Shown here: one piece after another, positions 1 to 27,727 of the stretch
Layout of the letters: each line of letters opens with the position of its first letter
Position numbering within the stretch: position 1 is the stretch's first letter
Assembly (NCBI GenBank): GCA_009729775.1
Contig: GCA_009729775.1_4081.1
Direction: 5' to 3' (one strand)
Length of the DNA stretch: 64,000 nucleotides
Origin: Escherichia coli
Lineage (GTDB): Bacteria > Pseudomonadota > Gammaproteobacteria > Enterobacterales > Enterobacteriaceae
Notes under the pieces: generated by a model
Told to the model about the DNA's origin: nothing
What the model saw: only the letters and a program-made list of their open reading frames with translations
Database searches by the model: none
Position numbers and translations under genes: made by a program

Positions 1-74
1 TGTTGAACTGTATTGAACAGTGCGTCCTGGATAAAATAATTTGCAGTATCGATGTTTCCTAAAATATCTAACAT
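1..74 (-). CDS. hypothetical protein, 5' part only (continues beyond window start)
   Basis: ATG at 72-74 on minus strand, open to coordinate 1; overlaps stop of upstream gene (ATGTTAG coupling). Confidence 0.3.
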   Translation of the reverse strand, partial: MLDILGNIDTANYFIQDALFNTVQ

Positions 75-604
75 AACTTCTCCTTTATAGCTGTCATATT
101 TAGAAGAAATTCAGTAAGCAATTCCTCCGTAACATGCTCTGTATACCAGAATATCACAATATCTTTTGAAAGTCTAGTATTCATAAAAATATCTACTAAC
201 TCTTTGTAGTACTCTAGCGTTTCGAGATTTGTGAGAATTAACGAGTACTGAAAGAGTAATTCTTCAGTTAGATTAAATTCTGGATAAAGTAAATCATTGA
301 ACTCATGTGATGCAGTTTGAACTTGAATTCGGTCAAAGTTATTGGTTATACAACCGGAATAACTATTTCTGTACAACGCTCTGTACAACGCAGCATAATC
401 TATGAATTTTGCTTTAGGGTTAAAATCAAGAACACTTTCACCTTTATATGACAATCGGTGGAACGCCGAGAACATAGTCACTTCCCACGGTTGCTTAATA
501 TCTAGCTCAGTGATATCAATATTATTGGACAGAAGAACCGTAAAAATCTCACCAATCTTTAATAGTAATTTTGTACGTGCCAGTGCTACCATCGGATCAG
601 ACAT
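68..604 (-). CDS. family A paralog (hypothetical)
   Basis: 178 aa ORF; core motif EELLFQYSLI. Confidence 0.7.
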   Translation of the reverse strand: MSDPMVALARTKLLLKIGEIFTVLLSNNIDITELDIKQPWEVTMFSAFHRLSYKGESVLDFNPKAKFIDYAALYRALYRNSYSGCITNNFDRIQVQTASHEFNDLLYPEFNLTEELLFQYSLILTNLETLEYYKELVDIFMNTRLSKDIVIFWYTEHVTEELLTEFLLNMTAIKEKLC

Positions 605-1017
605 TATACACCTTCATATTCATCAAGAAAATCTTCGATAATCATTTCAGCTTCATCCATATGCATAGCATCAACTTCAATGATGCGAACTTTAGATGCA
701 TCCCAAATCATATAACTAGGAACATTATCAGGCTCGTAGTCATTTTTGTACTGAACAGCATCATAACCTTGAGCAGTGCAATTCTCAATAAGTGAACGCC
801 ACTCATCATCACTGCCTAAATCTTCACACAGAAGCACGTTATCAACATCAACTTCTAAGGTATGCAAGTATACTGTACATGCGTCTACTACGTTCAGTGG
901 GCTTCTCAGCTTGCGTAATGCAGCTTCCAAAGCACTGTGTTTACCTCCCATATGAAGACCACCATACGGGATATAAAAGTTATCAATTTTTACAGTACTC
1001 GCATGATACAGTTTCAT
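604..1017 (-). CDS. hypothetical protein
   Basis: 137 aa ORF in operon context, no family motif. Confidence 0.55.
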   Translation of the reverse strand: MKLYHASTVKIDNFYIPYGGLHMGGKHSALEAALRKLRSPLNVVDACTVYLHTLEVDVDNVLLCEDLGSDDEWRSLIENCTAQGYDAVQYKNDYEPDNVPSYMIWDASKVRIIEVDAMHMDEAEMIIEDFLDEYEGV

Positions 1018-1026
1018 ATTTCATTC

Positions 1027-1611
1027 CTATTTCAGTACTTTAGTCAATGCTTTCACAGCGGTTTCGAGTTGAGCATAGTCGTTAATTGTAAGGTAATGAA
1101 TACCATGTGCCTTCATTTCAGCATCTATTTTACTATATAAATCAAACATGTCAAGGATATGATTGTATGCATATGAAGTATTTGAAACACACAATTCTTG
1201 GAACAAACGTTCTTCCAAGTCATTCACAACTTCTCCATGAATATCAAGTACTACACCATCTTTGTAAGTGTAGTACTCTTCACTCCACTCTTCAGAAAGT
1301 CGGAACAGTAACGGATTCCCGCCGAACACTTCCATGTCATAGGAATTTATCTCACTAAGTAGTGTTTCACCTGGTTCTGGTGTGAAGTCAAAATATGCGA
1401 GTGTTGTACCATCATAGTCCTTGAGTGATATACCAGTATGATTTAAGGTTACTTCACCATAATTATTATTCTTGAACTTGATTTTGATATTAATCTCAAT
1501 GTATTTTATTGTCTCATCATCACTGAAATTGTAATCAACTTTATACTTTTTCCAAAGAAGTTTGATATCTTTGAAGTACTTTAATTTACTTTCAATTTCT
1601 TTAAAGTCCAT
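1027..1611 (-). CDS. hypothetical protein (possible divergent family A)
   Basis: 194 aa ORF, acidic, contiguous with array. Confidence 0.55.
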   Translation of the reverse strand: MDFKEIESKLKYFKDIKLLWKKYKVDYNFSDDETIKYIEINIKIKFKNNNYGEVTLNHTGISLKDYDGTTLAYFDFTPEPGETLLSEINSYDMEVFGGNPLLFRLSEEWSEEYYTYKDGVVLDIHGEVVNDLEERLFQELCVSNTSYAYNHILDMFDLYSKIDAEMKAHGIHYLTINDYAQLETAVKALTKVLK

Positions 1612-2203
1612 CTGGAACCACCATTTCTTGAATGTGCTTACATTTTATATTTGCCATATTGGTATGTAATATAATGCTGTGTTTACGCAATGATTTTACT
1701 TTGTAGCACTCATTGAGTACTGAAATAATTCCCCATAACTCTTCTACACTAATAGTGATAGGTTCACTTGTACTCAGTTGCATCAGTGCTGCTTGAACAT
1801 CATCTTTGTTATTAATAGTGAACTGGATTCCTCTTTTGAGAATTTTAGTTTTTGGATTGTACTCAGCTAATACATCACCTTCTGGATAACCCTCATGAAG
1901 TAATAATGTTGTTTCAAAATCACCGCAGTTGAAGTTAATTTCATCATAATCAGGTACACAAATGTTCCCTTCCCCGTACTCATTAGGTTCAGATTCTAGT
2001 GTTAAAATACGCTGAGTCTCATTGCTCAGGATGATAGAATCATTCCAGTACTGGGTAGTGAATGCTCTACGTTTCTTTTGAAAGCACATACTCGACATTG
2101 AACCATACTTCTTGTATATGGACTTCTTGAACTCAATAGCAGCAGGAGCCACCTTGATAACTTCACGAATTAAGTCAATAGCTTCTTGATAACTTTTTCT
2201 CAT
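1601..2203 (-). CDS. hypothetical protein
   Basis: 200 aa ORF, overlaps neighbours by few nt. Confidence 0.55.
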   Translation of the reverse strand: MRKSYQEAIDLIREVIKVAPAAIEFKKSIYKKYGSMSSMCFQKKRRAFTTQYWNDSIILSNETQRILTLESEPNEYGEGNICVPDYDEINFNCGDFETTLLLHEGYPEGDVLAEYNPKTKILKRGIQFTINNKDDVQAALMQLSTSEPITISVEELWGIISVLNECYKVKSLRKHSIILHTNMANIKCKHIQEMVVPDGL

Positions 2204-2751
2204 TTATCGTATCCATATAAAATATGATCTAGTGTACTTTGTACTTCTTCATGAAAGAATGAAGGGTAAACTTGTATCAATTTATCTTTAAGTTCAAGGG
2301 AATGGCATAGTTCTAATGTTTTGTAACAATCCTCGTACTGTGCCAGATCATGTAATGTACTTAACTGAAAATGTTGTTCTTCGGAGTACAATAAATCATA
2401 AACCATATTATCGGATAAAAGATTAGATTTGATTGAAGGATCAAGTACTGTCTGGTGGTGACCAACCCAAAAGATAGCTTTTGAGTTAATGTTATTACAA
2501 CCCCATCCTTTCCCCATCTTTTGGTGAATAGCAAATACACAGGAATCATACAAATTAATGCTCAGACGTTCTTCGTCTGCATGGATAGTTACACCATCAA
2601 TAGATAGTGTATATTTGAAATCCATAGCCCCCTCACTTCGTGCACGAGAACTAAAGACCAGATATCGATGAATTATGGTATTGATTTTATCTGTCCATCC
2701 ATCAACACATTTGGATGCACATAATGTAAAAAGATCATGATTGTAGTTCAT
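2200..2751 (-). CDS. family A paralog
   Basis: core EEQHFQLSTL. Confidence 0.7.
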   Translation of the reverse strand: MNYNHDLFTLCASKCVDGWTDKINTIIHRYLVFSSRARSEGAMDFKYTLSIDGVTIHADEERLSINLYDSCVFAIHQKMGKGWGCNNINSKAIFWVGHHQTVLDPSIKSNLLSDNMVYDLLYSEEQHFQLSTLHDLAQYEDCYKTLELCHSLELKDKLIQVYPSFFHEEVQSTLDHILYGYDK

Positions 2752-2812
2752 AAAATTCTCCTTTAGGACAATGTATCATACAAAAATACCAGAGTCAACC
2801 CCTGGTACGAAT
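2752..2812 (-). promoter_or_regulatory. putative sigma70-like promoter (TTGACT-17-TACATT) and GGAG RBS
   Basis: read on reverse complement of intergenic gap upstream of 2200..2751. Confidence 0.3.
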
Positions 2813-3394
2813 TTAATCCATCATAAGTGGGATAATTGCCCATATCTTTTTCATAATCATATCTTCAGTAAAAACAAATGTTTTAGGAGCAGTATATGAT
2901 ATTGACACACCAAATGGAAGTTTGATTGCATCATCAATTATATTATGAATATCAAACCATGTTTTAACATAATCATACGGTGGAAGTTCATGAATTGTAC
3001 TTAACTGAAAGTAATTCTCTTCACCAAAATCACTATATTCAATTTCACAAATTTTAGTGAATTGATGATTCCATTTAGATATAATACTATTTTTATTATT
3101 GTACATAGTAGTTCTATGCATAAAACCATTTTTGCTAGTATGATTTGATATTACGTTTTCTTCAATGTCAGTATCTATTTTAAAATTCATATCAAAGTTG
3201 TAGTACGGACTTGACGATTCTTTGAATTTTAAATGTAAATTGCGATTGTTATTAATTTCAATTTCAATACAAAACACATCTGAATCAAAACGATTAAACT
3301 TGTAATCGTTATCTTCCGGTAGATTCTGTATTTTTTTCATAATACTAAGCATAGGGTGTACTACACTTTTAATAAAATCATTTGTTATTTTCAT
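2813..3394 (-). CDS. family A paralog
   Basis: core EENYFQLSTI. Confidence 0.7.
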   Translation of the reverse strand: MKITNDFIKSVVHPMLSIMKKIQNLPEDNDYKFNRFDSDVFCIEIEINNNRNLHLKFKESSSPYYNFDMNFKIDTDIEENVISNHTSKNGFMHRTTMYNNKNSIISKWNHQFTKICEIEYSDFGEENYFQLSTIHELPPYDYVKTWFDIHNIIDDAIKLPFGVSISYTAPKTFVFTEDMIMKKIWAIIPLMMD

Positions 3395-3887: not shown

Positions 3888-4312
3888 GTTTTGTCTCTTA
3901 ATGAAAGAATATCCTTAGTATAAACTGAAACAGAAATATGATTATATTTCATCATTAATTTATACACATAAGAAGCTAGTACTAAATCGTAAATTAATTT
4001 AGTATTATACAGTACTTGGTATTGTAACGCAAGTGAATCAATATCATCTTTACTTTCAATATCCAGAAATGTACCAAAAATTGTAGTACCGTGTAGATGA
4101 AAAGTGGAATTAATGCAATCAATGCATTCATTGTCCAATAGAGTAGATGATGATGCCCTCGGTGAATCCCAAATAGTCACTGCGTGTATGCCCTCAACGA
4201 ACAAATCTATCCATATTTTGTGTCGTTGTCTTTTTTTTGTTTTATAATTTTCTGGATTTGAAAGTGTAGTTTCAATTATATCCCATATGTACAAACAATC
4301 ATCTCTTGTCAT
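3884..4312 (-). CDS. hypothetical protein (possible divergent family A)
   Basis: 142 aa ORF, ATGA overlap with neighbours. Confidence 0.55.
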   Translation of the reverse strand: MTRDDCLYIWDIIETTLSNPENYKTKKRQRHKIWIDLFVEGIHAVTIWDSPRASSSTLLDNECIDCINSTFHLHGTTIFGTFLDIESKDDIDSLALQYQVLYNTKLIYDLVLASYVYKLMMKYNHISVSVYTKDILSLRDKT

Positions 4313-4890
4313 TATAGAACCTTATCCATTGCTGCATTTAATGCTTTTAAACGATCTACATTCAAATTATTGAAGATGTATGTTCCTAACATGTGGAAAT
4401 CGAACTGGTACTTTTTGTATTCATGATAAATTAAACTACAAAAAATAACAGTACTAAGAACCTCTTCAGGTATAACAGTGCTCATCTGGAACAGGTCTTC
4501 TTCAACTGTACTTGATTCTGGATCGATAGCTTTTAACTCATACTCTTCATCACCGAATAGTACTTTAATATTATATAAAACACCAACAGTACTAATATGG
4601 AATGGGTGGTGTGAAAAACTTCCATCATCCTTAATTTGTATATCGGTTCTAATCTCACACTCTTGATTACTTTTATTTTTATTTTTTACAATACAAATAT
4701 TTCTAGCCCCAGAAATAGTAAGAATGCCGTGATCGTAATATTCATTGGACCAACATTTAGATGAAATTGCTACATCACGGATGAGGTATTGTTTTTCAAT
4801 TTCTTTTGAACTACTAACAATTGATAACATTTTTGTACTGATATCATATAATAACTGATGGCGTTCTGTCATATAACTATAAGCGTTCAT
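4312..4890 (-). CDS. family A paralog
   Basis: core EEDLFQMSTV. Confidence 0.7.
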   Translation of the reverse strand: MNAYSYMTERHQLLYDISTKMLSIVSSSKEIEKQYLIRDVAISSKCWSNEYYDHGILTISGARNICIVKNKNKSNQECEIRTDIQIKDDGSFSHHPFHISTVGVLYNIKVLFGDEEYELKAIDPESSTVEEDLFQMSTVIPEEVLSTVIFCSLIYHEYKKYQFDFHMLGTYIFNNLNVDRLKALNAAMDKVL

Positions 4891-5461
4891 ATTTTTCCTT
4901 AACCAATTCTATATTTTGAAGTAGTGTATTCAGAACATCAGTCTTGTAATTGATAAAATCATTGTACATAACTAGTTCACCACAATCAAGAACTTTTGCA
5001 GTATCGTAACAAAGCATTAAGTACTCGAATTCTTTGTAATTGTCCAACAATGATTTCTGGAAAATGAATGCATCTCGAATATCTTCACTTTGGTCTAATT
5101 CTGGTGGAACATCCAACCCAATAAAACCATCATCTTCACTGAAATCAGATTCTACAATTTTATTAATTTTTTCATGTAATGCATTCGCAAATACCATATT
5201 AGAAGAAATAGAACCAATACGTTCACGATTTCTGGATGTGCGAATGTACATAGTAATCGTATCCCATGAACTTTTAATTTTTTTAGAAAATTCATAAGTT
5301 TTATATACATCCAACTGAACTGATCCAAAACGATGTTTGGATTTGTTTTCAATTTTCAATCGATAATCATCAAATTCAACAATTTCTGTAATGTCATGAA
5401 TCTCTGAAAGTTCTGCAATGTCATGCATGAGTCTCAAAATTTTAGTTCTGATATGGTTCAT
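4877..5461 (-). CDS. family A paralog
   Basis: core DAFIFQKSLL. Confidence 0.65.
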   Translation of the reverse strand: MNHIRTKILRLMHDIAELSEIHDITEIVEFDDYRLKIENKSKHRFGSVQLDVYKTYEFSKKIKSSWDTITMYIRTSRNRERIGSISSNMVFANALHEKINKIVESDFSEDDGFIGLDVPPELDQSEDIRDAFIFQKSLLDNYKEFEYLMLCYDTAKVLDCGELVMYNDFINYKTDVLNTLLQNIELVKEKYERL

Positions 5462-6036
5462 TGTGCATCCTCGAATTTAACAGGTACATGTTCATTAATG
5501 AAATTCTTAAGAGCCTGTACTAAATCCTCTAATTCTTTTGTACTGTATTTTAAAATAGTTTTAAAGTGAATCAAATCTTTTCTTTCCATGATCTTTGGAA
5601 TTTTATATGCTAACTCTAAACAGCGTACAGTACTGGCATCATACAAAAGGTTTGCGTTGAACATTAGAACATTGTATTCATCAGATGAAATTTTATAATT
5701 ATATGTATCAATCACTTCATGTGTGTATAAATTCTTATACACAATTTTATTCTCACTGAAGTTTGAGCAAACGCACAGATAATCGTTGTAAAATGAAGAA
5801 CGATAATCTTGTTTACGTTGTACATCTGCTATGATTTGTAATACTGTATATTTTTCTTCAGAATCCAACTCAATGTTAGCATAACTGCTCGCAGTTTCAG
5901 ATACAAGGATATTGATGTTATATTTCTCATTAACTTTAATGTACTGGCGTGAGCCAGTATCAGGAATGAACTTAAAACAATGCTTCAGAAGTAATGTGAC
6001 TTCTTTAATTAATTCAGTACTCATAGATTCCTCCAA
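5458..6036 (-). CDS. hypothetical protein (possible divergent family A)
   Basis: 192 aa ORF; RBS GGAGG upstream. Confidence 0.55.
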   Translation of the reverse strand: MEESMSTELIKEVTLLLKHCFKFIPDTGSRQYIKVNEKYNINILVSETASSYANIELDSEEKYTVLQIIADVQRKQDYRSSFYNDYLCVCSNFSENKIVYKNLYTHEVIDTYNYKISSDEYNVLMFNANLLYDASTVRCLELAYKIPKIMERKDLIHFKTILKYSTKELEDLVQALKNFINEHVPVKFEDAQ

Positions 6037-6041
6037 CTCTA

Positions 6042-6080
6042 GTTAAAATCAAGTATAACACACCTGAATGCTCTTGTAAA
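6042..6080 (-). promoter_or_regulatory. putative sigma70-like promoter (TTTACA-17-TATACT)
   Basis: reverse complement of gap upstream of 5458..6036. Confidence 0.35.
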
Positions 6081-6081: not shown

Positions 6082-6111
6082 CCATAAACACAAAAAGACC
6101 CATACGGGTCT
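6082..6111 (-). terminator. rho-independent terminator
   Basis: hairpin AGACCC-atac-GGGTCT directly after stop of 6112..6678, followed by U-tract on minus strand. Confidence 0.55.
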
Positions 6112-6678
6112 TTATTTTGGTAAAACACTGTCAATGTACGCTAGAACCTCATCTCGAAGGTACGTTCCATCTATAGTTAGGTAATAGTTCATGGGAATAT
6201 CACTCCCAACCTTCTCATAAATTTTCATACATGATATCACATCTTCATCACAAATGGTACTCAATTGAAAAAGAACTTCATCGGTTAACGGTACGATATC
6301 ATGTTTAGATAGGGGATTTGTATTTTCATTCAACACAATATTAATCAAGTTAGGAGTATTCTTTGACGAAATATAACGATGCTTACTACGAATTACCATT
6401 CTCGATAGTGAAATACTGGAACTCCATCTTGGATCAACATCTTCATATGATAACGATATTAACATCTCGTGAAAATCTTGAAATTTCATTGACGCATAAT
6501 ATGTTTTATCCTCACCGTACATACCAAATGATTTAAATTCAATATCCCCCACTTTGTATGTATCGACATCATTATTTGAGAACTTTATTAAACTATTAAT
6601 TAGTCTAATTAGAATATCATCTTTATCCATTCTTAAATAACTCCAAGTGCATGTCGTATAAATCTCTGAAGTCTTCAT
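6112..6678 (-). CDS. family A paralog
   Basis: core DEVLFQLSTI. Confidence 0.7.
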   Translation of the reverse strand: MKTSEIYTTCTWSYLRMDKDDILIRLINSLIKFSNNDVDTYKVGDIEFKSFGMYGEDKTYYASMKFQDFHEMLISLSYEDVDPRWSSSISLSRMVIRSKHRYISSKNTPNLINIVLNENTNPLSKHDIVPLTDEVLFQLSTICDEDVISCMKIYEKVGSDIPMNYYLTIDGTYLRDEVLAYIDSVLPK

Positions 6679-7186
6679 AGAAATCTTTTTCTTCGAGAAT
6701 ATTCTTTAAACTGGGAATCTCTTCCATAATTTCATCTATATCTGATTCTATGAAAAATCCTGATGGATTATCGTAGTTTTGTAACAGATAACTGAAAGTA
6801 ATAATGTAAAGAAGTTCATTAGGATTGTGAATTAAACTTAGCTGGAACATAGCTGATTCTAAATCTGATTCAGTACTAAGATCAACCCAACGTGAATTTC
6901 TATAATCAACTCGTACTTGACTTGTATTTGGATTCCATGTGAAGCAATGTGTACCAATATGACCTATACAACCAACCCTTGTACTGTCTCCGGTATCAAC
7001 ACTGATATCAACAAATAGTTCAATACCGATATCGGTTGATGTTACACGACCTTTTTTCAGAAATAAATCATTATCCTTACGAAATTGTTTGGATGAAAGA
7101 GTGTCAATGATGCACATCAATGTTTTTGCAAATGCAACACAATGACGAAATTCAAGCCTATGAAATTGGTAATCATTGATATTCAT
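6623..7186 (-). CDS. family A paralog
   Basis: core ESAMFQLSLI; start approximate. Confidence 0.65.
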   Translation of the reverse strand: MNINDYQFHRLEFRHCVAFAKTLMCIIDTLSSKQFRKDNDLFLKKGRVTSTDIGIELFVDISVDTGDSTRVGCIGHIGTHCFTWNPNTSQVRVDYRNSRWVDLSTESDLESAMFQLSLIHNPNELLYIITFSYLLQNYDNPSGFFIESDIDEIMEEIPSLKNILEEKDFYEDFRDLYDMHLELFKNG

Positions 7187-7725
7187 AATTCAACCCTCAA
7201 TATTTTATCAGCAATTGATATAACCTTATCATTGAATACATTACCAATCTCAATCCTTATATACATAGCAGGTGGAATCTTTCCTTGTAGTGAATAATAT
7301 GTTTGTATACCTAAGTACTCATTATCTGATAATGAAAATTTGATTCTCTCCATATCAATGTCTGTTACTGGTAAATCTATCATTTCATAATGGTAGTCAA
7401 CGTTTTCAGTGTATATTTTATCGAAGTAATTTGAATAATCACTACTAATATAGATGCTATCATCACGAATAATCACTTTATAATCAGAAGGTTCAAATTT
7501 ATCTTTAGAAGAAAAGAATGCATCATCTATCTTCTCTTCTCTTATACCGAATAACATTTTACCATCATATTTTACATCAAGAATACTACCTAGTATATTA
7601 ATGGTACAATGCTCATCAATATTATGACGTAAAGAACGAGTCTTGTATTTTGGGTTAATGAAAATTTTCATTAATTTTATACAAATTTCAGTAATGCATT
7701 TTACATTCTCATTTTCTATGTACAT
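7183..7725 (-). CDS. hypothetical protein
   Basis: 180 aa ORF. Confidence 0.55.
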   Translation of the reverse strand: MYIENENVKCITEICIKLMKIFINPKYKTRSLRHNIDEHCTINILGSILDVKYDGKMLFGIREEKIDDAFFSSKDKFEPSDYKVIIRDDSIYISSDYSNYFDKIYTENVDYHYEMIDLPVTDIDMERIKFSLSDNEYLGIQTYYSLQGKIPPAMYIRIEIGNVFNDKVISIADKILRVEL

Positions 7726-8212
7726 TAAAAGCCCTCTTTAATTCTTTTACATTTTTAATGAATACTTTCATTGCAGAAATCTCAAAAGATAATGTATTAA
7801 ATTTGCAGTACTTTTTAAAGTACGACATAATATATAACATTTTGAGTTCTTTTTCTGTATAAATTAAACTGTTTTGAAAGTAACTTTCTTCGGAAATGTC
7901 CGTAAGAAAAGAATAAAATGTATTTTGCTTGTGCACAATTTTAATACTATCAGACCAAGATTTGTAAGAAACGTAATCAGTACGTGCAAAATCATATAGT
8001 GAATTAGATGTATCTGTGTATGTTTCCGAGAACACAATCTTATATATCTTATCTTGAATTCGAGAACATATGTACCTATGGTCATCTGTCTCACTGATTG
8101 CAATGTATCTATGGAGTAAATCTTTATGAGCATTGATGAACTCAAACACTTCTAAACACTCCCTAGCGAACTTCATAGTTTCTCTGTACTTTCGGTTCAT
8201 TAGTCTCTCCAA
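7709..8212 (-). CDS. family A paralog
   Basis: core EESYFQNSLI. Confidence 0.7.
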   Translation of the reverse strand: MERLMNRKYRETMKFARECLEVFEFINAHKDLLHRYIAISETDDHRYICSRIQDKIYKIVFSETYTDTSNSLYDFARTDYVSYKSWSDSIKIVHKQNTFYSFLTDISEESYFQNSLIYTEKELKMLYIMSYFKKYCKFNTLSFEISAMKVFIKNVKELKRAFNVHRK

Positions 8213-8613
8213 ACTTTACCAGGGAAGTGTTTCTCGTAGTACTCATCATCACTTAACATATAATCAGGAGTTTCTACTTCTATGGTTTTGAAGATTGTTT
8301 CTGGAATGTGTGTGACTTTATTGGGTTGTACTTTATGTTCGCGTAAAACCTTCTGTATCGCTCCTAGACGTTGTAAATCGATACATGTAGGAAAGACTAA
8401 GCTGTACTGAAATAACTCATCAGGGGTCATTATAGACACATCTTTAGCTTGTTTGATTTGATAATTAGTACTAATGAATATATCAAATCCTTGTACAGCA
8501 TTATAGCTTACATAGGTTGTTTTATTTTTGTCAATAGGAGCACTTAAACGATATCCATATATCCCGTGTTGGTCAACAACACATCGTTGCATAATTTTAA
8601 TCATTTCGAACAT
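8200..8613 (-). CDS. family A paralog
   Basis: core PDELFQYSLV. Confidence 0.7.
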   Translation of the reverse strand: MFEMIKIMQRCVVDQHGIYGYRLSAPIDKNKTTYVSYNAVQGFDIFISTNYQIKQAKDVSIMTPDELFQYSLVFPTCIDLQRLGAIQKVLREHKVQPNKVTHIPETIFKTIEVETPDYMLSDDEYYEKHFPGKVWRD

Positions 8614-8959
8614 AATTTACCTCGTGTGTGATATAACTCCACGCAGTAAGAATATCTATTTGTATATCCTGTACTTCATGAAAATATTTAAGTACCTTCT
8701 GGTATTCCATTATTTTGTACACATCTTCAGTACTGATAGTGCTCTGCTGAAACAATTCCTCTTCTGATAAAGTACTATAATCAGGGATTTTTATTTCTGA
8801 ATATATATCATTTATCTTTCCATTGTCTTGATAAATCTGGATATAAAATTGATTGTATTCTGGAATATAGGTTACATAATGATTGTGTCTGATTACATAT
8901 CTTGAAACAAAGTATTCAGTACCATCAGTCATGTACTGAATTGTTGTCGTATTTTGCAT
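8597..8959 (-). CDS. family A paralog
   Basis: core EEELFQQSTI. Confidence 0.7.
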   Translation of the reverse strand: MQNTTTIQYMTDGTEYFVSRYVIRHNHYVTYIPEYNQFYIQIYQDNGKINDIYSEIKIPDYSTLSEEELFQQSTISTEDVYKIMEYQKVLKYFHEVQDIQIDILTAWSYITHEVNYVRND

Positions 8960-9892: not shown

Positions 9893-9951
9893 TGTGATAT
9901 AACCCTTTACAATTAATATAAAGAGATTATATCACAAAGAATCGGAGGGTG

Positions 9952-19397: not shown

Positions 19398-19940
19398 TCA
19401 TACATTAACAACTTTATCGATGTAATCTTCTAACATATCAATATATCTGGTATTGGTTCTAACTAAAAGGTATGCAAATCCAGAAAACTCCTGTGTATAA
19501 TGCTTTACAGCGTACATACAACGAAGCTTATCATTGTCATACATTGTACTGTACTGAAACAAACTCTCGTCTGATAGCTCTAATAACGCTTGGGCTTCAC
19601 TTCTCGTGAACTTCATAGGGTCATGTACTGCATCACAAAAACAAACCTGTGTCTCGCTATTGAAACCCTGTGATAGATATATACCTTCACACTCTGAACG
19701 CACCGATACTGCATTATAACTATGTGTTGCCCCCATCATATCTGAACTCAAAACTAAAATCAACCCATTTTTATTTTTAATCAACAAATCTGACTTAAGG
19801 GATTTGATCTCCGTATGGGAAATATCACCAAATCTTCCTGGAACTTCAAACTTATCAACGTTGTATACAATCTTTTGTACTTGCTCTTTTAAACGCTTAA
19901 TTGCACTTCTGTCTTTTTCTAATGTATCTAATAAACTCAT
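19398..19940 (-). CDS. family A paralog
   Basis: core DESLFQYSTM; start set at MSLLDTLEK by analogy with MSLQSAL subfamily. Confidence 0.6.
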   Translation of the reverse strand: MSLLDTLEKDRSAIKRLKEQVQKIVYNVDKFEVPGRFGDISHTEIKSLKSDLLIKNKNGLILVLSSDMMGATHSYNAVSVRSECEGIYLSQGFNSETQVCFCDAVHDPMKFTRSEAQALLELSDESLFQYSTMYDNDKLRCMYAVKHYTQEFSGFAYLLVRTNTRYIDMLEDYIDKVVNV

Positions 19941-19950
19941 TGTACTTTCC

Positions 19951-20295
19951 TTACATATTTGTACCGAACAAAACGGAACTTTGAATGCCATTAATCGACA
20001 CTTCATGTACATATATATTTTGTCTGAATACCTGAAGCAATTGAACTAAACTTTGTTGCATAATAATATGCATATGTACATTATCAAAGGCCGTTTCGTA
20101 TTGGAATCGTGCAGCTTCATCTTCTATGAAATTCGGAACTTGGACTGGATTTTCAAAATTTGTCCTTGTACTGAACTGTACATCATTGTCCTGTACCTTA
20201 ATACCATATGAATTATCATTGTTATCAACTACATCAAATTCAATTAAACTACCATCTTTACTGACGTTTACTATATAAACCGAAAATCGACTCAT
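19951..20295 (-). CDS. family A paralog (divergent)
   Basis: core EAARFQYETA. Confidence 0.55.
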   Translation of the reverse strand: MSRFSVYIVNVSKDGSLIEFDVVDNNDNSYGIKVQDNDVQFSTRTNFENPVQVPNFIEDEAARFQYETAFDNVHMHIIMQQSLVQLLQVFRQNIYVHEVSINGIQSSVLFGTNM

Positions 20296-20807
20296 AAACC
20301 TATTTCCTCTAAATCTTTGACAAATGTATCATAATCCGATAATGACAAAAATATGTCTGTACTGATGTTTTGACGTAATGTATTAAACAAATTATGTACC
20401 TGTAATAAATCAGGTGCATAAATCAGGGATTGCTGGAAATACGATTCTTCTGTATCTAATATATCCCTGCACTCTATTTCACGAACTCGTTGGTATATTG
20501 AATTTAATAATACATTTTCATCTTTGAGCATTGGAAGGTATCGGATGTACATGTGCTCCATCATCTCATCCTGGATTGAACCCCTGAACTGCAACACGTA
20601 TTCAAAACACATCACTACATCTTGTAGGTAATTGGCACTGTAATTATTGCTGTAAACAATCTTATGACTTCTGAACTCATCATCATTTCTGAACCAATTG
20701 TCACCTACTTTGGTGTACTTATGACTAAGCTTCCCATCCTCCAACGCTCGAATGAACTTCATAATGTTAATTGCAAAATCATATGAATGATGCTTGTGTT
20801 GATGCAT
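20292..20807 (-). CDS. family A paralog
   Basis: core EESYFQQSLI. Confidence 0.7.
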   Translation of the reverse strand: MHQHKHHSYDFAINIMKFIRALEDGKLSHKYTKVGDNWFRNDDEFRSHKIVYSNNYSANYLQDVVMCFEYVLQFRGSIQDEMMEHMYIRYLPMLKDENVLLNSIYQRVREIECRDILDTEESYFQQSLIYAPDLLQVHNLFNTLRQNISTDIFLSLSDYDTFVKDLEEIGL

Positions 20808-20815
20808 TTTTTACC

Positions 20816-21010: not shown

Positions 21011-21011
21011 A

Positions 21012-21635
21012 CTATATATCCAACCCTTTTACAACATCTACGAAATGTTCAAACACTTCTTTTGAAAAATAACCACCTTCACAAAAAAGCATACTAAACG
21101 GTGGCAGCATGTCCGATAACTCTTTAGCTAAATTGATTTCTGCTCTTAACTCTTGAACATCAATGATATCATGTACTAAAGATAATTGAAACATGAATGC
21201 ATCTACATCTTCATTCATTTCTGAATTGTAATATAACTCTTCAGGGAATTTGTCGGTTTCGTAATAATAAAAAACTTTATTGTTGAACACACCACTAATA
21301 GGAACATCATTTTCATCTTTCTTTGAAATGTTTGTTTCCCATGACTCTATATTATTAGGAACAAAAAAATCATAGGCTGACTTTGAACCCTGTACTGAAT
21401 CCAACTTTATTCCATAATATTCCGTATCCATGTATTTCTGCTGTAATGTAATACCACGTGTACTGACATTCACTTGGAATATATCATCTTTATCTGGAAC
21501 ACTAAATGGAATACATAACACTGAATTCTCAGGGTATTTGGCAATGAATGCATCCAGCACTTTATTAAGCACCGGAATGGCAATTTTACTGTACTGCATC
21601 AAATCATACATTTTAATTCTGGTCATATCATTCAC
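21012..21635 (-). CDS. family A paralog
   Basis: core DAFMFQLSLV. Confidence 0.7.
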   Translation of the reverse strand: MNDMTRIKMYDLMQYSKIAIPVLNKVLDAFIAKYPENSVLCIPFSVPDKDDIFQVNVSTRGITLQQKYMDTEYYGIKLDSVQGSKSAYDFFVPNNIESWETNISKKDENDVPISGVFNNKVFYYYETDKFPEELYYNSEMNEDVDAFMFQLSLVHDIIDVQELRAEINLAKELSDMLPPFSMLFCEGGYFSKEVFEHFVDVVKGLDI

Positions 21636-22167
21636 CTGTGTATGTTTTCACCCTTAGCGATTCAAAATCCCATACATCACTGATTGTACCATTGTGCCTG
21701 TAATCATAATATTCTACTAATACATTATACAATAACTTCAACGATACAAATTCATGATTCCACGGAGCTTTATTCTCATGAACACATTTGGTGATATAAG
21801 GTATAATATATAAACTAAACAACACTAATGGTGAATGTATACATTGCATTTGAAAATATTCTTCTTCTTGCATACAATGTTCAGGAATAATTAGATCATA
21901 ATGTGTCTCAAATAAATGTAAACCTATTGTGGTTTTTTTCGTATCACATGCGTACCATATTGTACTATCCGAAATAAATGGAATGATACCATTATTGTTT
22001 GCAATGTACATCATATGGTAAGAGCGATTTGTCTTGTTAAATATCTCGATACTTTCGATATTACTACAAATCATGTATTCAAGGCAATCAATGATCTTAT
22101 CTTTAAATGTACCAATTTCATTGAATGACATTGCTTTCTGTACTTTTGATACTGTTGTACTGCTCAT
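21628..22167 (-). CDS. family A paralog
   Basis: core EEEYFQMQCI. Confidence 0.65.
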   Translation of the reverse strand: MSSTTVSKVQKAMSFNEIGTFKDKIIDCLEYMICSNIESIEIFNKTNRSYHMMYIANNNGIIPFISDSTIWYACDTKKTTIGLHLFETHYDLIIPEHCMQEEEYFQMQCIHSPLVLFSLYIIPYITKCVHENKAPWNHEFVSLKLLYNVLVEYYDYRHNGTISDVWDFESLRVKTYTGE

Positions 22168-22838
22168 ATGTTATCCTTAAAAAAATCCAAATACTCTTCA
22201 TTGAAAGCATATGTATCATCTTTTTTGTTATGCACCACATAATCATAAAGAGCTATGAATGCAGGGATTATGATCTTACATGATTTATTATTGTATTTGT
22301 GGTACTCCAAATCAACGGTGTTCAATTTAGCAATAAGCATAGCAACAAAGATATCTTCATGGCGATGTACTGTACTGTACTGAAAATACTCATCCTCTCC
22401 AATATCTGGATGATATAACGGTATAACCAAATTATTACGAATTGACATCTTATATTTTTGTAATGCAGCTAAATGTATGAACCACAATCTATCTTCATTG
22501 AAATATGGAAAAATAATTTTGTCTGTGCTAATAAAAATTTCTTCATTTCGATTATTTGTCACAAGAGGTGCATACATTTTAATTTTTGCAGATCTAATAA
22601 TTAAATTAAAAATATAATGAATCTTATGAACTGCACTTGATGCATCTTCGTATGTACTTGGGATTATGAAACTCACTATATGTTCTCCTTTAAAATGATT
22701 ACACATGATAACAGCTTTGCACTTCTTTGTCAATACCAAAACGAAAAAAGCCCATATCTTACGATACAGGCGTGCTGGGAATGTTGATTTGGATTTCATT
22801 GTACAAATCATCAATATATAGACATGAAAAAAACACAC
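22164..22838 (-). CDS. family A paralog
   Basis: core EDEYFQYSTV; start probably at an internal Met (track start overlaps upstream gene by about 80 nt). Confidence 0.6.
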   Translation of the reverse strand: MCFFHVYILMICTMKSKSTFPARLYRKIWAFFVLVLTKKCKAVIMCNHFKGEHIVSFIIPSTYEDASSAVHKIHYIFNLIIRSAKIKMYAPLVTNNRNEEIFISTDKIIFPYFNEDRLWFIHLAALQKYKMSIRNNLVIPLYHPDIGEDEYFQYSTVHRHEDIFVAMLIAKLNTVDLEYHKYNNKSCKIIIPAFIALYDYVVHNKKDDTYAFNEEYLDFFKDNI

Positions 22839-23265
22839 TATCTTTTAATATATTGTTGTGATAAAGCATTTTAAATACTACATAAAAAAATAAATCAATA
22901 TCATCGTGGACTAAATTCTGCTGGAACCACCACTCGTCTGTTAAATCTTGTGCATTAAAATCATCAGGAACTTCAATGAACGACATATCACAATCTTCTT
23001 TGTACTCAAACCACATGTCGTCATTCGGATAACGTTCATGCTTCTCTGGGTAACAATTGCTGGGATTAAATGTTAAAATATTAAACCCCGTAGAGCAACG
23101 TTCTTTATTTAAAAATGTATTATTCCATACCTGATATTTTTCACCAACATCAAGCTCTTCTGTTACTGATTTTATTGCACATAATGTACTGTATATTGTT
23201 TCTATCTTGTGAACATATTTAAATGCAGCATCTAAGCTGAACTCTAAATCATACATGTACTGCAT
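22759..23265 (-). CDS. family A paralog
   Basis: core DEWWFQQNLV. Confidence 0.65.
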   Translation of the reverse strand: MQYMYDLEFSLDAAFKYVHKIETIYSTLCAIKSVTEELDVGEKYQVWNNTFLNKERCSTGFNILTFNPSNCYPEKHERYPNDDMWFEYKEDCDMSFIEVPDDFNAQDLTDEWWFQQNLVHDDIDLFFYVVFKMLYHNNILKDSVFFSCLYIDDLYNEIQINIPSTPVS

Positions 23266-23585
23266 AAAATTACCTCAACTAAAGCAAGGACTGTATTGAA
23301 TTCCACTATACTTGTAATTCCTTGAAGGTACATGTACTTTGCTACTACATATTTCTGTACTAAATTATAATTTTTAAATTCCTCAAAATTGTAATTCAAA
23401 ATGAAATTTGTACTCAAAAATAACTTATGCATCTCTAATGCACTCTGATAATATTGGTACAACTCTCTGATATCAATACTTTGTAAATCACTTTGTTCAT
23501 ATGTATGATAAGGAATGGCTTCAATTTCAATACGATGAAACCATTCTCTTAACTTATTAATATCAAATGTATTATTCAGCTTCAT
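23244..23585 (-). CDS. hypothetical protein
   Basis: 113 aa ORF. Confidence 0.5.
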   Translation of the reverse strand: MKLNNTFDINKLREWFHRIEIEAIPYHTYEQSDLQSIDIRELYQYYQSALEMHKLFLSTNFILNYNFEEFKNYNLVQKYVVAKYMYLQGITSIVEFNTVLALVEVILCSTCMI

Positions 23586-24138
23586 AACTCAATATCTCCA
23601 TTAAACACTCATAAACACCATCAATCGCATAAGCACAAAAATTGAAATTAATTTTATGATTCTTGTGTAATGGACTATTGTGTACTGTACTAATAAGGAC
23701 ATTATAAAACAACAAACGCACTGGCACAAGCAATGAACCTTGGAAAAATTCTTCCTCTGATTTATATGTATTGTACTCTATTGTTTTGTTCGTTTCTGTA
23801 TCATATTTTACCATTACTAATGGGGAATTTTTATTATACCATGCGTACTCTAAATCATTCTTTCCAATAACAGCACCAGGTGCGAAATCCAAAAGACCAA
23901 TAACACTATGGGCATTTGGTGTATCAGGTGTATTGAATCGTTTATCAAAATGACTCGTGCACGCAATATATGTATTGTACTTCGATGGAATGATACCAAT
24001 ACATTTGTGGATGTGACGCTTGTAATCTTTCTGGGCATTATATAAGGCTGCAACAATACAAGCTAACTTTTGTCCCATAAGGATTGCATTAGCGTAGGTG
24101 TACTGAATTTCATTGCTGGTACGGTACTTCGAGGTCAT
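23572..24138 (-). CDS. family A paralog
   Basis: core EEEFFQGSLL. Confidence 0.7.
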   Translation of the reverse strand: MTSKYRTSNEIQYTYANAILMGQKLACIVAALYNAQKDYKRHIHKCIGIIPSKYNTYIACTSHFDKRFNTPDTPNAHSVIGLLDFAPGAVIGKNDLEYAWYNKNSPLVMVKYDTETNKTIEYNTYKSEEEFFQGSLLVPVRLLFYNVLISTVHNSPLHKNHKINFNFCAYAIDGVYECLMEILSYEAE

Positions 24139-24421
24139 AATATTTCCTTTGCCATATCATGGGCTTAAAATCAATAACAGCTTTCTGTATCTTTTTTAAT
24201 AATAAGACATCATAACCACCCGTATCAATCACTAATTGCTGTTGGAACAATTCTTCATCGGATAATGTATTGAAATCTACAAAATAATCTGTGACTATCG
24301 AATCATTTAAATGTGCCATGTACCAACCTGAACTTCTTGAATAAATCAAATTCCACCCATCGTCATTGTCTTCTAATTCAACATAAATCATATCTGGGGT
24401 ATACATCATTTTATACTTCAT
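24110..24421 (-). CDS. family A paralog
   Basis: core DEELFQQQLV. Confidence 0.65.
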   Translation of the reverse strand: MKYKMMYTPDMIYVELEDNDDGWNLIYSRSSGWYMAHLNDSIVTDYFVDFNTLSDEELFQQQLVIDTGGYDVLLLKKIQKAVIDFKPMIWQRKYYDLEVPYQQ

Positions 24422-24965
24422 AACTATATCCTTGCATTAATAAATCATAAACTACATGGACTAAATTTAATTGAATATAAAATTTTAAACCTTTAATTAA
24501 TGGATTCAAATGCATTGTACTGAATAACATTAGATACATCATCTCATGCGGTTTTGTGATTAATGATTTTTGAAATACTTCAGCTTCATCATAAGGGTCT
24601 ATGAACTGAAATTTGTCTTCATCATAATTTGTATTGGAATGCTGATATATAAAATAATCATCATTGGTATTGTACCACAAATACCCTTCGAATCCTGTAC
24701 TAACACCTTTGGTCAATGGGGATGCTGATACTGGATTTGAACTGATTAATGCACCTACATCAACAATCCCCGTTGTATCATATTCGATTTCAACATCAAT
24801 GTCAATATCAATGTATTTCCTTGCGATATCTGCGTTTATGGACAAATACAAACTACCACCTGTCCTCTGACTCAGGATTCCATCTATCTGCGATATAGGA
24901 TGGTTGTTATTGAGGATAAGCATTATTGTACTTATCTTGTGTGCTAATAACTCTATCTCATTCAT
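24411..24965 (-). CDS. family A paralog
   Basis: core EAEVFQKSLI. Confidence 0.65.
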   Translation of the reverse strand: MNEIELLAHKISTIMLILNNNHPISQIDGILSQRTGGSLYLSINADIARKYIDIDIDVEIEYDTTGIVDVGALISSNPVSASPLTKGVSTGFEGYLWYNTNDDYFIYQHSNTNYDEDKFQFIDPYDEAEVFQKSLITKPHEMMYLMLFSTMHLNPLIKGLKFYIQLNLVHVVYDLLMQGYSYEV

Positions 24966-25920: not shown

Positions 25921-26108
25921 ACTATCTCCGTTCGCAACGAATTTATATAATAATGAACAAATTGTTCTTGTGAACGTGTTCCAAGAAAAATAAACATATC
26001 AAACTCTGTTGTTTTTAAATTCAATGCATCTTTTGTAAAATTCCTGTTGAATTCCCTGTACTTTTGGGTCTTCCATTCTTGATTAATTGTCTTGTATATC
26101 GATTTCAA
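25890..26108 (-). CDS. family B paralog
   Basis: motif IFLGTRSQEQFV. Confidence 0.6.
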   Translation of the reverse strand: MKSIYKTINQEWKTQKYREFNRNFTKDALNLKTTEFDMFIFLGTRSQEQFVHYYINSLRTEIVCKTQGIIKR

Positions 26109-26409
26109 TGATTCTCCCTGACATACCTTGTATTAGCTTATCATACATATCGAGCATCACTTTTTGAATATTAATTAGTACTGGCATCGTGCAAATATCA
26201 ATGTCGTATACTAAGCTGTACTGGAATAATTCATCTTCCTGCATTTGTACTAAATTAGGTAAAGGATAATTGTCTGCCTCTTCATCCTGATACTTGAAAT
26301 GCATAACACCATCCTTTTTGTACAAAAGAATGTCAATATCACCTAACTCTTCTGCATAACCAAAAATACATATACTCGATGTTTTTGCTATATTAAATTT
26401 CATATACAT
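26083..26409 (-). CDS. family A paralog
   Basis: core EDELFQYSLV. Confidence 0.7.
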   Translation of the reverse strand: MYMKFNIAKTSSICIFGYAEELGDIDILLYKKDGVMHFKYQDEEADNYPLPNLVQMQEDELFQYSLVYDIDICTMPVLINIQKVMLDMYDKLIQGMSGRIIEIDIQDN

Positions 26410-26411
26410 CC

Positions 26412-26753
26412 TTATACATAAATTTGATAGACATTTTGAACAAAATACTTTGGAAGACTACTATATGATATCATCTGCCTTTGTACTTCCTTCATCTCTT
26501 CCAATGTCAATCCCAAAGAATCATCGTGTACTATCATGTACTGAAACTCGTCTTCTTCAGAGATATCAAATAAATTCGGTACTGCAATTATATCAATACC
26601 TACCATCCAAAAAAAAGAATTATTACTTTTTCTGTACTCAAAAAAATTCAAAGAAGAACCACTCTGTAAATCAGATACCATAATGGAACATTCATCGTTA
26701 CGTACAATACAATTGAATTTACGCATTATCTCCACCTCTCTCCGTCTGTACAA
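26412..26753 (-). CDS. family A paralog
   Basis: core EEDEFQYMIV. Confidence 0.65.
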   Translation of the reverse strand: MYRRREVEIMRKFNCIVRNDECSIMVSDLQSGSSLNFFEYRKSNNSFFWMVGIDIIAVPNLFDISEEDEFQYMIVHDDSLGLTLEEMKEVQRQMISYSSLPKYFVQNVYQIYV

Positions 26754-26971
26754 GAGTACTGGTACGTTGTCGTTAGGGTAGGGACCATGTTTGTAATGGG
26801 CATGTTGTTAACAATAACCGTAACAGGCATAAGAATCGTCTCTTCTCTACTCTGTCCTGTCCTTGTGCAATTCATCTTTTGCATTTCATCTGAATCCATG
26901 AAATACAATACAAATGGTGCAATCCCAAGAACAATACACAAGACGATAAGGAAATTTAAAAAATTTAACAT
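26726..26971 (-). CDS. hypothetical small protein, possible membrane protein
   Basis: 81 aa; hydrophobic N-terminus MLNFLNFLIVLCIVLGIAPFVLYF. Confidence 0.4.
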   Translation of the reverse strand: MLNFLNFLIVLCIVLGIAPFVLYFMDSDEMQKMNCTRTGQSREETILMPVTVIVNNMPITNMVPTLTTTYQYSCTDGERWR

Positions 26972-27030
26972 AATTTTTACCCTATGATTAACGTTAGTGT
27001 ACTATATCAGTAATGAAAAGTACTATCAAG

Positions 27031-27417
27031 CTAGTATTGCACTGTTCTAATGAAAGTGCCTGAACTCATGGATTTAAGCTTATGAACCTCTTCCTGTATA
27101 CCCTTGATTAACCCTAAAGGTATAGGTACATCATGTACTAAGCTGTACTGAAAGTATTCTTCTTCAGATAAAGTACTAACATCTGGAACTCCAATTTTAG
27201 TTAGATAATCTTGATGTGTTGACCAATAAATTATATCTTCAGTAGAATTGTACTCCCCATATACTGAACAATATTGATGAATATCTTTCCTGTACCCTTG
27301 AGCAATAAAGAACTTATCTACTGCATTACCAGCATTAATAGAATTCACTTCGATTGTCACAGTACTTGAGCTTGTATAACTCTTAATACTCAACTGTGTG
27401 TTCTTCATAATCACCAT
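27031..27417 (-). CDS. family A paralog
   Basis: core EEEYFQYSLV. Confidence 0.7.
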   Translation of the reverse strand: MVIMKNTQLSIKSYTSSSTVTIEVNSINAGNAVDKFFIAQGYRKDIHQYCSVYGEYNSTEDIIYWSTHQDYLTKIGVPDVSTLSEEEYFQYSLVHDVPIPLGLIKGIQEEVHKLKSMSSGTFIRTVQY

Positions 27418-27727
27418 TAGGCTCCTGTTTAGATTCTTTCATTAGTACTATCATCTTATGTACTAATGGCATAGGGAACTCTAAATCCCATACTAATGAT
27501 TCCTGGAAGTATTCCTCTGGTGATAAAGTACTTAAATCTTTAATATCAACGTGCTTGTATATTTTATTTTCGTAATTAACAAATGATATATATAAATCAC
27601 TAACATAAGAATCATAGGTAATTGTGAATGGCTTACCCTTGTAATCCATTACATCTCTACATAGACTACTTTTGATATATGTATGTTCAAATGATTTATA
27701 TACCTTGAGTTGTATATTAGTTTTCAT
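27383..27727 (-). CDS. family A paralog
   Basis: core PEEYFQESLV. Confidence 0.7.
   Translation of the reverse strand: MKTNIQLKVYKSFEHTYIKSSLCRDVMDYKGKPFTITYDSYVSDLYISFVNYENKIYKHVDIKDLSTLSPEEYFQESLVWDLEFPMPLVHKMIVLMKESKQEPNGDYEEHTVEY

Follow-up and report, generated by a model that had tools for sequence, protein, structure and literature searches.

The 64,000-nucleotide (nt) stretch analysed here (contig GCA_009729775.1_4081.1 of an Escherichia coli assembly, referred to below as the window) carries near its left end a very large tandem array of small, divergent genes that belong to one previously undescribed protein family, here called family A. By megablast the window derives from Asteriusvirus, a genus of E. 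coli jumbo myoviruses with genomes of about 350 kb; nt 1-24981 are 98.7% identical to phage vB_EcoM_G17 (G17) and 96-99% identical to 121Q, phAPEC6, SHEFM2K and others. In every phage record examined the genes of this locus are labelled 'hypothetical protein'. A sequence-only reading of the window had proposed a very large tandem expansion of a single family, and this is borne out: 41 genes, spread over 27.7 kb of one strand, pass a leave-one-out (LOO) test with hidden Markov models (HMMs). Its coordinates and strand were also right, the first member lying at nt 68-604 and the last at nt 27383-27727, all on the minus strand, and the head-to-tail packing it described is confirmed by the gene junctions, 45 of 62 of which overlap (12 as ATGA). 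The interval nt 68-27727 is about 98% coding and includes some 22 genes that are not members, four of them from a second family of 70-amino-acid (aa) proteins. Family A itself occupies about 19 kb, roughly 5% of the genome.

The shared motif is far above chance. FQxS, searched as a regular expression, is present in 34 of the 63 genes at 1-28 kb and in one of the 84 genes in the remainder of the window, and 500 residue shuffles gave a mean of 1.2 occurrences and a maximum of 5, an excess of about 30-fold. The stricter motif of the sequence-only reading occurs 17 times and was absent from the shuffles. An HMM seeded on the motif-bearing open reading frames (ORFs) and then iterated converged on 42 minus-strand genes. 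Each was taken out of a 183-sequence alignment (window copies plus database representatives) before the profile was built, and a gene was taken to pass at E<1e-3; 41 of the 42 did so, most at 1e-9 to 1e-27. The sole failure (nt 4877-5461, E=4.8) is in register with the family by profile-profile comparison and is related to the gene at nt 5458-6036, whose orthologs its profile recruits. The gene at nt 19951-20295 is borderline (E about 1e-3 to 6e-3), and five further interleaved genes gave merely weak in-register matches at the motif position. From these profile comparisons the copy number is best stated as 41 firm members and probably two to three divergent extras, which makes the original figure of about 44 a fair estimate. 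The similarity spans the whole domain of 110-150 aa. Membership could not be established for an outlier at nt 53921-54580 that had been counted with the family: its similarity is confined to the motif, where 22 columns match the family and 8 of the 11 residues of PEEEFMYSTVID are identical to the consensus, with M in place of the invariant Q. The features of the array, and this outlier, are as follows (E, leave-one-out E-value unless stated otherwise; pI, isoelectric point).

68..604 (-): long member, 178 aa, E=1.7e-9; motif EELLFQYSLI; transcribed last in the array
2200..2751 (-): long member, 183 aa, E=3.2e-7
2786..2808 (-): intrinsic terminator inside the array, annotated in G17 too
2813..3394 (-): long member, 193 aa, E=8.6e-10
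4312..4890 (-): long member, 192 aa, E=1.3e-10
4877..5461 (-): probable divergent member, 194 aa, motif AFIFQKSLLDN, E=4.8; hhalign in register, 39%, P=3e-4
5458..6036 (-): probable divergent member, 192 aa, degenerated motif NVLMFNANLLYD; hhalign 84%, P=7e-6, 59 columns in register
6094..6113 (-): terminator, then at 6080..6052 a promoter TTTACA-17-TATACT (TG); conserved in ph0011; G17 annotates the terminator
6112..6678 (-): long member, 188 aa, E=1.2e-13
6623..7186 (-): long member, 187 aa, E=1.2e-15; nearer to copies in RaK2 and metagenome contig L002 (BLAST, 77.8 and 58.5 bits) than to any neighbour (30 bits)
7709..8212 (-): long member, 167 aa, basic (pI 9.1), E=1.5e-20
8200..8613 (-): short member, 137 aa, E=1.8e-10
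8597..8959 (-): short member, 120 aa, E=6.7e-16
8925..9419 (-): long member, 164 aa, E=6.6e-23
9416..9892 (-): long member, 158 aa, first after the internal promoter, E=1.2e-22
9926..9955 (-): sigma-70-type promoter, TTGACA, 18 nt, TATAAT, extended -10 TG; 12/12 consensus; conserved in G17 and ph0011
9952..10536 (-): long member, 194 aa from GTG, E=2.4e-24
10496..10837 (-): short member, 113 aa, E=3.3e-9
10816..11259 (-): member, 147 aa from TTG, E=6.2e-13; G17 annotates a shorter gene, and the true start is probably further in
11183..11545 (-): short member, 120 aa, E=5.9e-10
12144..12704 (-): long member, 186 aa, E=1.6e-11
13059..13595 (-): long member, 178 aa, E=1.6e-6; best relative in metagenome contig L002
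13592..14041 (-): long member, 149 aa, E=1.7e-21
14346..14660 (-): short member, 104 aa, E=2e-6
14657..15109 (-): long member, 150 aa, E=3.4e-26; in a recent five-gene duplication cluster, 35-56% identical to neighbours
15087..15575 (-): long member, 162 aa, pI 4.05, charge -26, modelled, E=8.7e-27
15575..16018 (-): long member, 147 aa, E=1.5e-21
16015..16485 (-): long member, 156 aa, motif YYFQQNTI, E=3.9e-21
16487..16978 (-): long member, 163 aa, E=1.9e-23
16988..17347 (-): short member, 119 aa, motif ELFQAALV, E=1.8e-10
17344..17700 (-): short member, 118 aa, modelled, E=6.2e-13
17700..18071 (-): short member, 123 aa, E=4.9e-12
18229..18789 (-): short member, ORF from TTG of 186 aa, E=8.5e-7; G17 annotates about 125 aa, and the ORF is probably over-extended at its 5' end
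19398..20012 (-): long member, 204 aa, E=1.8e-10
19951..20295 (-): borderline member, 114 aa, motif AARFQYETAFDN; HMM E=4.5e-3, 6.2e-3 and 1.3e-3
20292..20807 (-): long member, 171 aa, E=2.8e-17
21012..21635 (-): long member, 207 aa, E=1.4e-5
21628..22167 (-): long member, 179 aa, motif EYFQMQCI, E=9.7e-16
22164..22838 (-): member, ORF from GTG of 224 aa, E=9.2e-12; PHROG match starts at residue 45, probably near the true start of an over-extended ORF
22759..23265 (-): long member, 168 aa, motif WWFQQNLV, E=2.5e-14
23572..24138 (-): long member, 188 aa, E=2.9e-14
24110..24421 (-): short member, 103 aa, motif ELFQQQLV, E=7.7e-9
24411..24965 (-): long member, 184 aa, E=1.5e-17
26083..26409 (-): short member, 108 aa, E=3.9e-13
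26412..26753 (-): short member, 113 aa, motif DEFQYMIV, E=5.7e-7
27031..27417 (-): short member, 128 aa, E=3.8e-13
27383..27727 (-): short member, 114 aa, transcribed first in the array, E=1.7e-11
53921..54580 (-): motif-only outlier, 219 aa, basic, PEEEFMYSTVID; HMM E=2.3; hhalign 87%, 22 columns

Family A proteins are small (100-210 aa), and their motif has the consensus [LMI]-[TS]-E-E-x-[YLF]-F-Q-x-S-[LT]-[VIL]-[YHF]-[DN], in which F and Q are invariant in all 183 sequences; the near-invariant Ser position is occupied by Q, N, A or M in some retained members. The F-Q pair is separated from the C-terminus by 39-75 residues (median about 51) and not, as first thought, by 30-40. The rest of each protein had been described as highly divergent, and pairwise identity is indeed typically 8-25%, but conserved aromatic and hydrophobic positions span the whole domain. 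In the numbering of the protein encoded at nt 15087-15575, the conserved strand positions are Y37, Y68, Y74-I-x-Y77, I83 and I85, and conservation extends beyond the motif to a hydrophobic repeat in the next helix and to F-Y-[LFI]-D-[LIV] near the C-terminus. An indel-rich region, with column occupancy of 5-30%, separates the third strand from the next conserved one.

Modelling (AlphaFold2, paralog alignment) of this long-type protein (162 aa) gave a predicted local distance difference test (pLDDT) score of 87.8 and a predicted template modelling (pTM) score of 0.82, with an N-terminal helix, seven strands, a short helix containing F113-Q114, a long helix, a strand and a C-terminal helix, in that order. 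A separate AlphaFold model of a short-type protein (nt 17344-17700, 118 aa; pLDDT 85.6, pTM 0.82) shares this core but lacks both terminal helices. The shared domain is thus predicted to be of alpha/beta type, with an antiparallel sheet of 5-7 strands, the short F-Q helix, a long amphipathic helix and a closing strand. The motif segment forms a helix-turn with pLDDT >90 in both models, in which T/S108, E109-E110, S116 and D/N120 would occupy helix-cap positions and F113 would pack in the core, so that much of the motif may be a structural keystone. The hydrophobic stretch noted after the motif exists, but it corresponds to the amphipathic helix. A transmembrane reading of it was rejected, the maximum 19-residue hydropathy being below 1.6 save in two ORFs with over-extended 5' ends, and no transmembrane segment was predicted in the annotated family A coding regions. 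Most members are acidic (median pI 4.9, median charge -9; extremes pI 4.05 and charge -26), with pI <5.5 in 34 of 42 and pI >7 in five, the highest being 9.1; in the cluster at nt 15087-16978, pI is 4.05-4.25 and charge -14 to -26. The segment E-E-x-Y-F-Q-x-S (residues 108-120 of the nt 15087-15575 protein) resembles the cleavage sites of the tobacco etch virus (TEV) and human rhinovirus (HRV) 3C proteases, probably by coincidence, and the likeness is a practical warning when affinity tags are to be removed from these proteins.

Database comparisons returned uncharacterised proteins only. None of the 42 members exceeded the Pfam-A threshold (the best, DUF3741 at E 0.006, is under the cut-off), NCBIfam gave nothing meaningful, the family profile matched no PDB sequence at E up to 10, and the PDB yielded no related fold. 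Members match 26 PHROGs families at E<1e-5 (9317, 12674, 13866, 15629 and 22 others), with E down to 1e-144; all 26 are labelled 'unknown function', and a single family is split across them. A Foldseek search of predicted viral structures matched solely uncharacterised proteins of RaK2-like jumbo phages: the named matches at E<0.01 come from 121Q, RaK2 and a Yersinia phage, and those at E 0.02-0.05 from GAP32, Serratia BF and SP27. The Yersinia phages matched are fHe-Yen9-03/04.

An exhaustive HMMER scan of 1.84 billion cluster representatives detected 149 family A clusters at E up to 1e-3. Their lengths are 65-215 aa, none has an extra domain, and the motif is present in 134 of the 141 newly recovered. 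Named members belong to Escherichia Asteriusvirus and Klebsiella Alcyoneusvirus (RaK2, K64-1, Muenster, KP13-7, RCIP0023, phiKp_21), and the remaining clusters were assembled from sequencing runs and metagenomes, in part as contigs about 350 kb long. Matches labelled 'E. coli' sit on contigs of that length too, and bacterial assemblies are known to contain virulent jumbo phages, Asteriusvirus included (bioRxiv 10.1101/2024.12.31.630880). In IMG/VR, 121Q and RaK2 alone matched a strict back-translated DNA pattern, but this pattern fits just one of the 41 window copies and carries little weight on distribution. Among isolates, the family HMM counted 41 copies at the locus in G17, 39 in ph0011, at least 36 in vB_Ec-M-J (locus truncated) and 28 in RaK2. 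Two unrelated metagenome contigs of low guanine-plus-cytosine content, L002 and L009, carry 24 copies in 20 kb and 25 copies in 15 kb, and a third contig at least six. The array also keeps its position, upstream of a Dam methylase gene in G17, RaK2, ph0011 and one metagenome contig, and a cytidylyltransferase gene beside the methylase in G17, RaK2 and ph0011. The count of paralogs in related genomes, a check the sequence-only reading had suggested, thus gives 24-41 copies at the same genomic position in RaK2-like phages and uncultivated relatives.

For 21 of the 41 members, the stronger BLAST match is in RaK2 or a metagenome phage rather than among paralogs of the same genome; the protein encoded at nt 13059-13595, for example, scores 95 bits against L002_6255 and 18.5 bits within its own genome. 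Many duplications therefore predate the genera, and by these sequence matches about half of the paralogs predate the split from the Klebsiella RaK2-like phages. Two clusters are local and more recent (nt 14657-16978 and 16988-18789). Orthologs are collinear and mostly one-to-one, with a median ratio of non-synonymous to synonymous substitution rates (dN/dS) of 0.26 against ph0011 (35 pairs) and 0.25 against vB_Ec-M-J (30 pairs), compared with 0.29 and 0.24, respectively, for neighbouring non-family genes; dN and dS are both higher in family A than in those neighbours. The array had been called diversifying, and in the sense of ongoing rapid evolution this is not what the orthologs show, being one-to-one, in order and under constraint like that of their neighbours. 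The interval nt 19398-24965 is 43-69% identical to its ph0011 orthologs, with saturated dS, and the flanking parts of the array are 75-98% identical. It has the appearance of a mosaic stretch of old alleles inside the array, and the low identity to ph0011 at 19.4-25 kb points to alleles exchanged by recombination, not to fast adaptive change. High-identity matches to PBECO4, UB and the Salmonella SD phages end at nt 17702.

The array lies downstream of a promoter-dense region on the same strand that corresponds to the terminal repeat annotated in vB_Ec-M-J. That repeat, direct and 21.5 kb long, is at the left end of the phage, and all genes point inward from there: spaced-out small genes within the repeat come first, the 70-aa genes follow as a block, and family A comes next. 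Relative to vB_Ec-M-J the window is inverted, and by extrapolated alignment the repeat maps to about 33-53 kb; the physical left end of vB_Ec-M-J maps, again by extrapolation, near 53.6 kb. A repeat of 20.7 kb has been reported for phage Sharanji. The boundary of the Sharanji record falls inside the array and was considered as a genome end, but the record is collinear with the window and has no annotated repeat; the boundary is therefore an arbitrary record start. Most intergenic gaps at about nt 33000-52000 on the minus strand carry a near-consensus sigma-70-type promoter before a small gene, and this is likely the early region. The authors of the CBB study proposed the equivalent region as early, and in PA5oct, a related Pseudomonas phage that uses host RNA polymerase, the terminal-repeat genes are early by RNA sequencing (PMC7318152). 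Within the array, ph0011 keeps both the promoter at nt 9955-9926 and the terminator-promoter module at nt 6113-6052 despite divergence of the surrounding coding sequence. No family A member is among the 62 virion proteins in the published mass spectrometry table of the close relative phAPEC6, which lists nothing between gp347 and gp549, the range that holds family A members such as gp442c. Because of the terminal-repeat context, the promoters and the absence from virions taken together, early or early-middle expression in the cytoplasm appears likely.

The reading we favour, at about an even chance of being correct, is that family A is a panel of proteins that are made early in infection and interact with the host inside the cell; all would use the same scaffold, and each copy would be kept for a target of its own. 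Host RNA polymerase would read the array as an extension of the early region, which begins in the terminal repeat, and the proteins would work within the infected cell as a set of binding or inhibitor modules. The [ST]EExxFQxS[LT][VIL][YH][DN] segment and the conserved aromatics would hold the scaffold, with polar conservation that fits helix-capping, and the indel-rich loops, termini and differing surface charge would give every paralog its own target, a host factor or defence protein. The array would have been built by tandem duplication followed by divergence (birth-and-death evolution). That each copy has long been retained under purifying selection implies a lack of redundancy among them. 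The sequence-only reading had suggested a host-interaction module; the early, promoter-rich context, acidity, lack of a membrane segment and absence from virions fit this, while the more specific functions it named, anti-defence or host takeover, stay conjectural. Several observations weigh on the other side. No gene-wide positive selection was found and orthologs are one-to-one, unlike the usual locus in an active arms race; promoter-like sites at 1-20 kb are not above shuffles (122 vs 119), and the timing of the array is read from promoters and position; no homolog with a known function was found in the Pfam, NCBIfam, PDB and cluster-representative searches, and no member is fused to a known domain. 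A bolder and distinctly unlikely version makes the array an adaptor library, in which the invariant EExxFQxS face would dock a single common partner (a phage effector, or a host hub such as a protease or RNA polymerase) and the variable faces would recruit different host defence or stress proteins. If true, a single phage would command dozens of specificities from one novel fold. No larger counter-defence arsenal on a single scaffold would be known in any bacterial virus, and such an arsenal might help explain how jumbo phages without a nucleus persist in many E. coli strains.

The conserved segment itself can be read in other ways. Also against a panel of host-directed binders, the invariant Gln, together with the two Glu and the Ser that are nearly invariant, could belong to a catalytic site or one for a shared ligand. 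Family A would then be an enzyme or ligand-binding family, with the invariant Q, the near-invariant E-E, S and D and the tyrosines forming an active site or pocket and the paralogs modifying or binding different substrates, such as nucleotide signals or host proteins. Invariant polar residues in a family of merely 8-25% identity would suit such a site, as would the conservation of nearly all 13 segment positions, beyond the needs of packing alone. Yet a domain of about 100 aa in the short type is very small, profile and fold searches matched no catalytic fold or family, members substituted at the near-invariant Ser are retained, and the polar positions may fit helix N-cap and C-cap roles in the models; on balance an enzyme seems rather unlikely. 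It is most improbable that the segment is cleaved by a protease, or that the proteins are packaged and injected like the internal proteins of T4. The TEV site is ENLYFQ/S and the HRV-3C site LEVLFQ/GP, to which the consensus E-E-x-[YLF]-F-Q-x-S is similar, and the [LMI]-[ST]-E that precedes it resembles T4 prohead-protease sites. Both models, however, place the segment in a confident helix-turn (pLDDT >90), Q is followed by different residues (Y, L, Q, N, E or G, mostly the first five), and the conserved S comes two positions after Q, unlike the G or S that directly follows it in TEV and 3C sites. We know of no Gln-specific protease in these phages, and no search was made for one; as to packaging, the virion proteome of phAPEC6 contains no family A member.

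Two further explanations concern the array as a whole. Duplication might have expanded the genome into an enlarged capsid, leaving copies of little individual function (the ratchet of Hua et al. 2017). The space involved, some 19 kb or roughly 5% of the genome, agrees with this idea, which is nevertheless disfavoured and very unlikely given the intact reading frames, a dN/dS of about 0.26, the retention of individual paralogs across genera and the conservation of both translational-coupling overlaps and internal promoters. Alternatively, the array may serve conflicts among phages or immunity to toxins, each paralog neutralising a different toxin or exclusion factor of host toxin-antitoxin systems, abortive-infection toxins or competing phages, much like the immunity arrays of polymorphic toxins. 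A tandem array of small, divergent, mostly acidic paralogs has that appearance, and Asteriusvirus persists in E. coli isolates (bioRxiv 10.1101/2024.12.31.630880), where it would encounter numerous resident elements. However, no toxin gene lies among or beside the paralogs, and no fold similarity to SUKH or other immunity folds was found in the PDB; this unlikely alternative is in any case a sub-case of the host-interaction panel with a narrower class of targets.

That paralogs exist at this locus was already known. Tandem gene arrays in phages G and 121Q are mentioned in one sentence by Hua et al. 2017 (PMC5646251), the phAPEC6 paper makes the same statement, and the RaK2 paper states that about 10% of RaK2 proteins are paralogues. 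The 121Q array of Hua et al. is probably family A or the neighbouring 70-aa family, but that mention gives no genes, motif, fold, distribution or function, and none of these three accounts identifies them for the family. The main comparative review of jumbo phages (PMC7824862) does not mention family A. In that review (Iyer et al. 2021), a zinc-ribbon expansion of about 35 copies in phage G is called 'unprecedented', which agrees with the earlier remark that an expansion of this size is unusual for a phage. The arrays of phage G and 121Q are like family A in being lineage-specific tandem expansions of at least 30 small genes in a jumbo phage, but the phage G family is a zinc ribbon proposed to bind DNA, whereas family A has no metal-binding motif and an unrelated alpha/beta fold. 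The locus has the features of a viral multigene family, with adjacent, co-oriented, homologous paralogs whose copy number varies between relatives. Family A therefore appears to be a new, undescribed family within a known phenomenon, the tandem multigene expansions of large viruses, with an apparently new fold.

Comparable arrangements are known in other viruses. The multigene families MGF360/505 of African swine fever virus (ASFV) and the terminal host-range families of poxviruses consist of tandem divergent paralogs near a genome end and are presumed to be host-directed. Like family A, they show lineage-variable copy number (here 41, 39, 28 and 24-25) and birth-and-death evolution; unlike them, family A copies are stable and orthologous within the genus, and there is no relation in sequence or fold. 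Host-takeover modules in phage terminal repeats include gp37-60 of SPO1, the pre-early genes of T5 and the Tre genes of Kayvirus. These modules, and that of PA5oct, resemble family A in having small uncharacterised genes at or near the repeat and strong host-type promoters, but they comprise many unrelated genes, while family A is one expanded family just inside the repeat and not within it. Ocr and ArdA are small, very acidic, early cytoplasmic anti-restriction proteins that mimic DNA. Family A proteins are small and for the most part acidic, most strongly so in the nt 15087-16978 cluster, but several paralogs are neutral or basic, and a PDB fold comparison found no similarity to Ocr or ArdA.

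RaK2-like jumbo phages (Asteriusvirus, Alcyoneusvirus and uncultivated relatives) devote about 5% of a 350-kb genome to a family without a Pfam entry, a name or a solved or recognisable fold. If its members are host-directed binders, they offer a ready set of 40-plus natural variants of one scaffold for the discovery of anti-defence and host-control functions. The family should also be useful for studying how phage genomes grow by duplication, being the clearest test case for expansion of jumbo genomes by tandem duplication, and a negative outcome would be informative too. There is relevance to therapy, as several such phages are being characterised for use and more than 80% of their genes are unknown.

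Directly upstream of family A is a second tandem family (family B, minus strand), whose 27 paralogs of about 70 aa carry a conserved LGTNYQE motif. Family B covers nt 27717-33020 plus four copies inside the family A array (nt 12694-12885, 12863-13084, 25654-25920 and 25890-26108); kinship between the two families was rejected (hhalign 0.3%). At the far end of the array, the ph0011 ortholog of the gene at nt 604-1017 (minus strand) is labelled 'putative ADP-ribosyl transferase', a label unsupported by Pfam, NCBIfam, PHROGs or PDB sequences. Upstream of family B, an intergenic element is repeated, in which a hairpin-containing promoter-like sequence, GGGATTGACTCCGGTCAGTCCCTTTGCTATTATA (nt 34540-34573, 36463-36496 and 39822-39855), is followed some 20-30 nt later by CCCAYAGGGTGC. 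The latter occurs at nt 34508, 36426, 39790, 42149, 43839, 48324 (plus strand) and 50139, seven copies where none is expected. The element has no Rfam match and could be a small RNA or a regulatory site.

Unusually long non-coding stretches (nt 51874-52535 and 52662-53164) lie beside the strand switch. On the plus strand, a third tandem family of six paralogs of 358-449 aa occupies nt 56118-63443; its relatives are annotated as 'regulator of chromosome condensation' or 'DNA condensation protein', and in phAPEC6 the homologous proteins are part of the virion. On the minus strand, three neighbouring paralogs of about 60 aa are found at nt 54591-54770, 54779-54961 and 54970-55155, and other small paralog pairs are those at nt 53165/55395 and 53556/53746.

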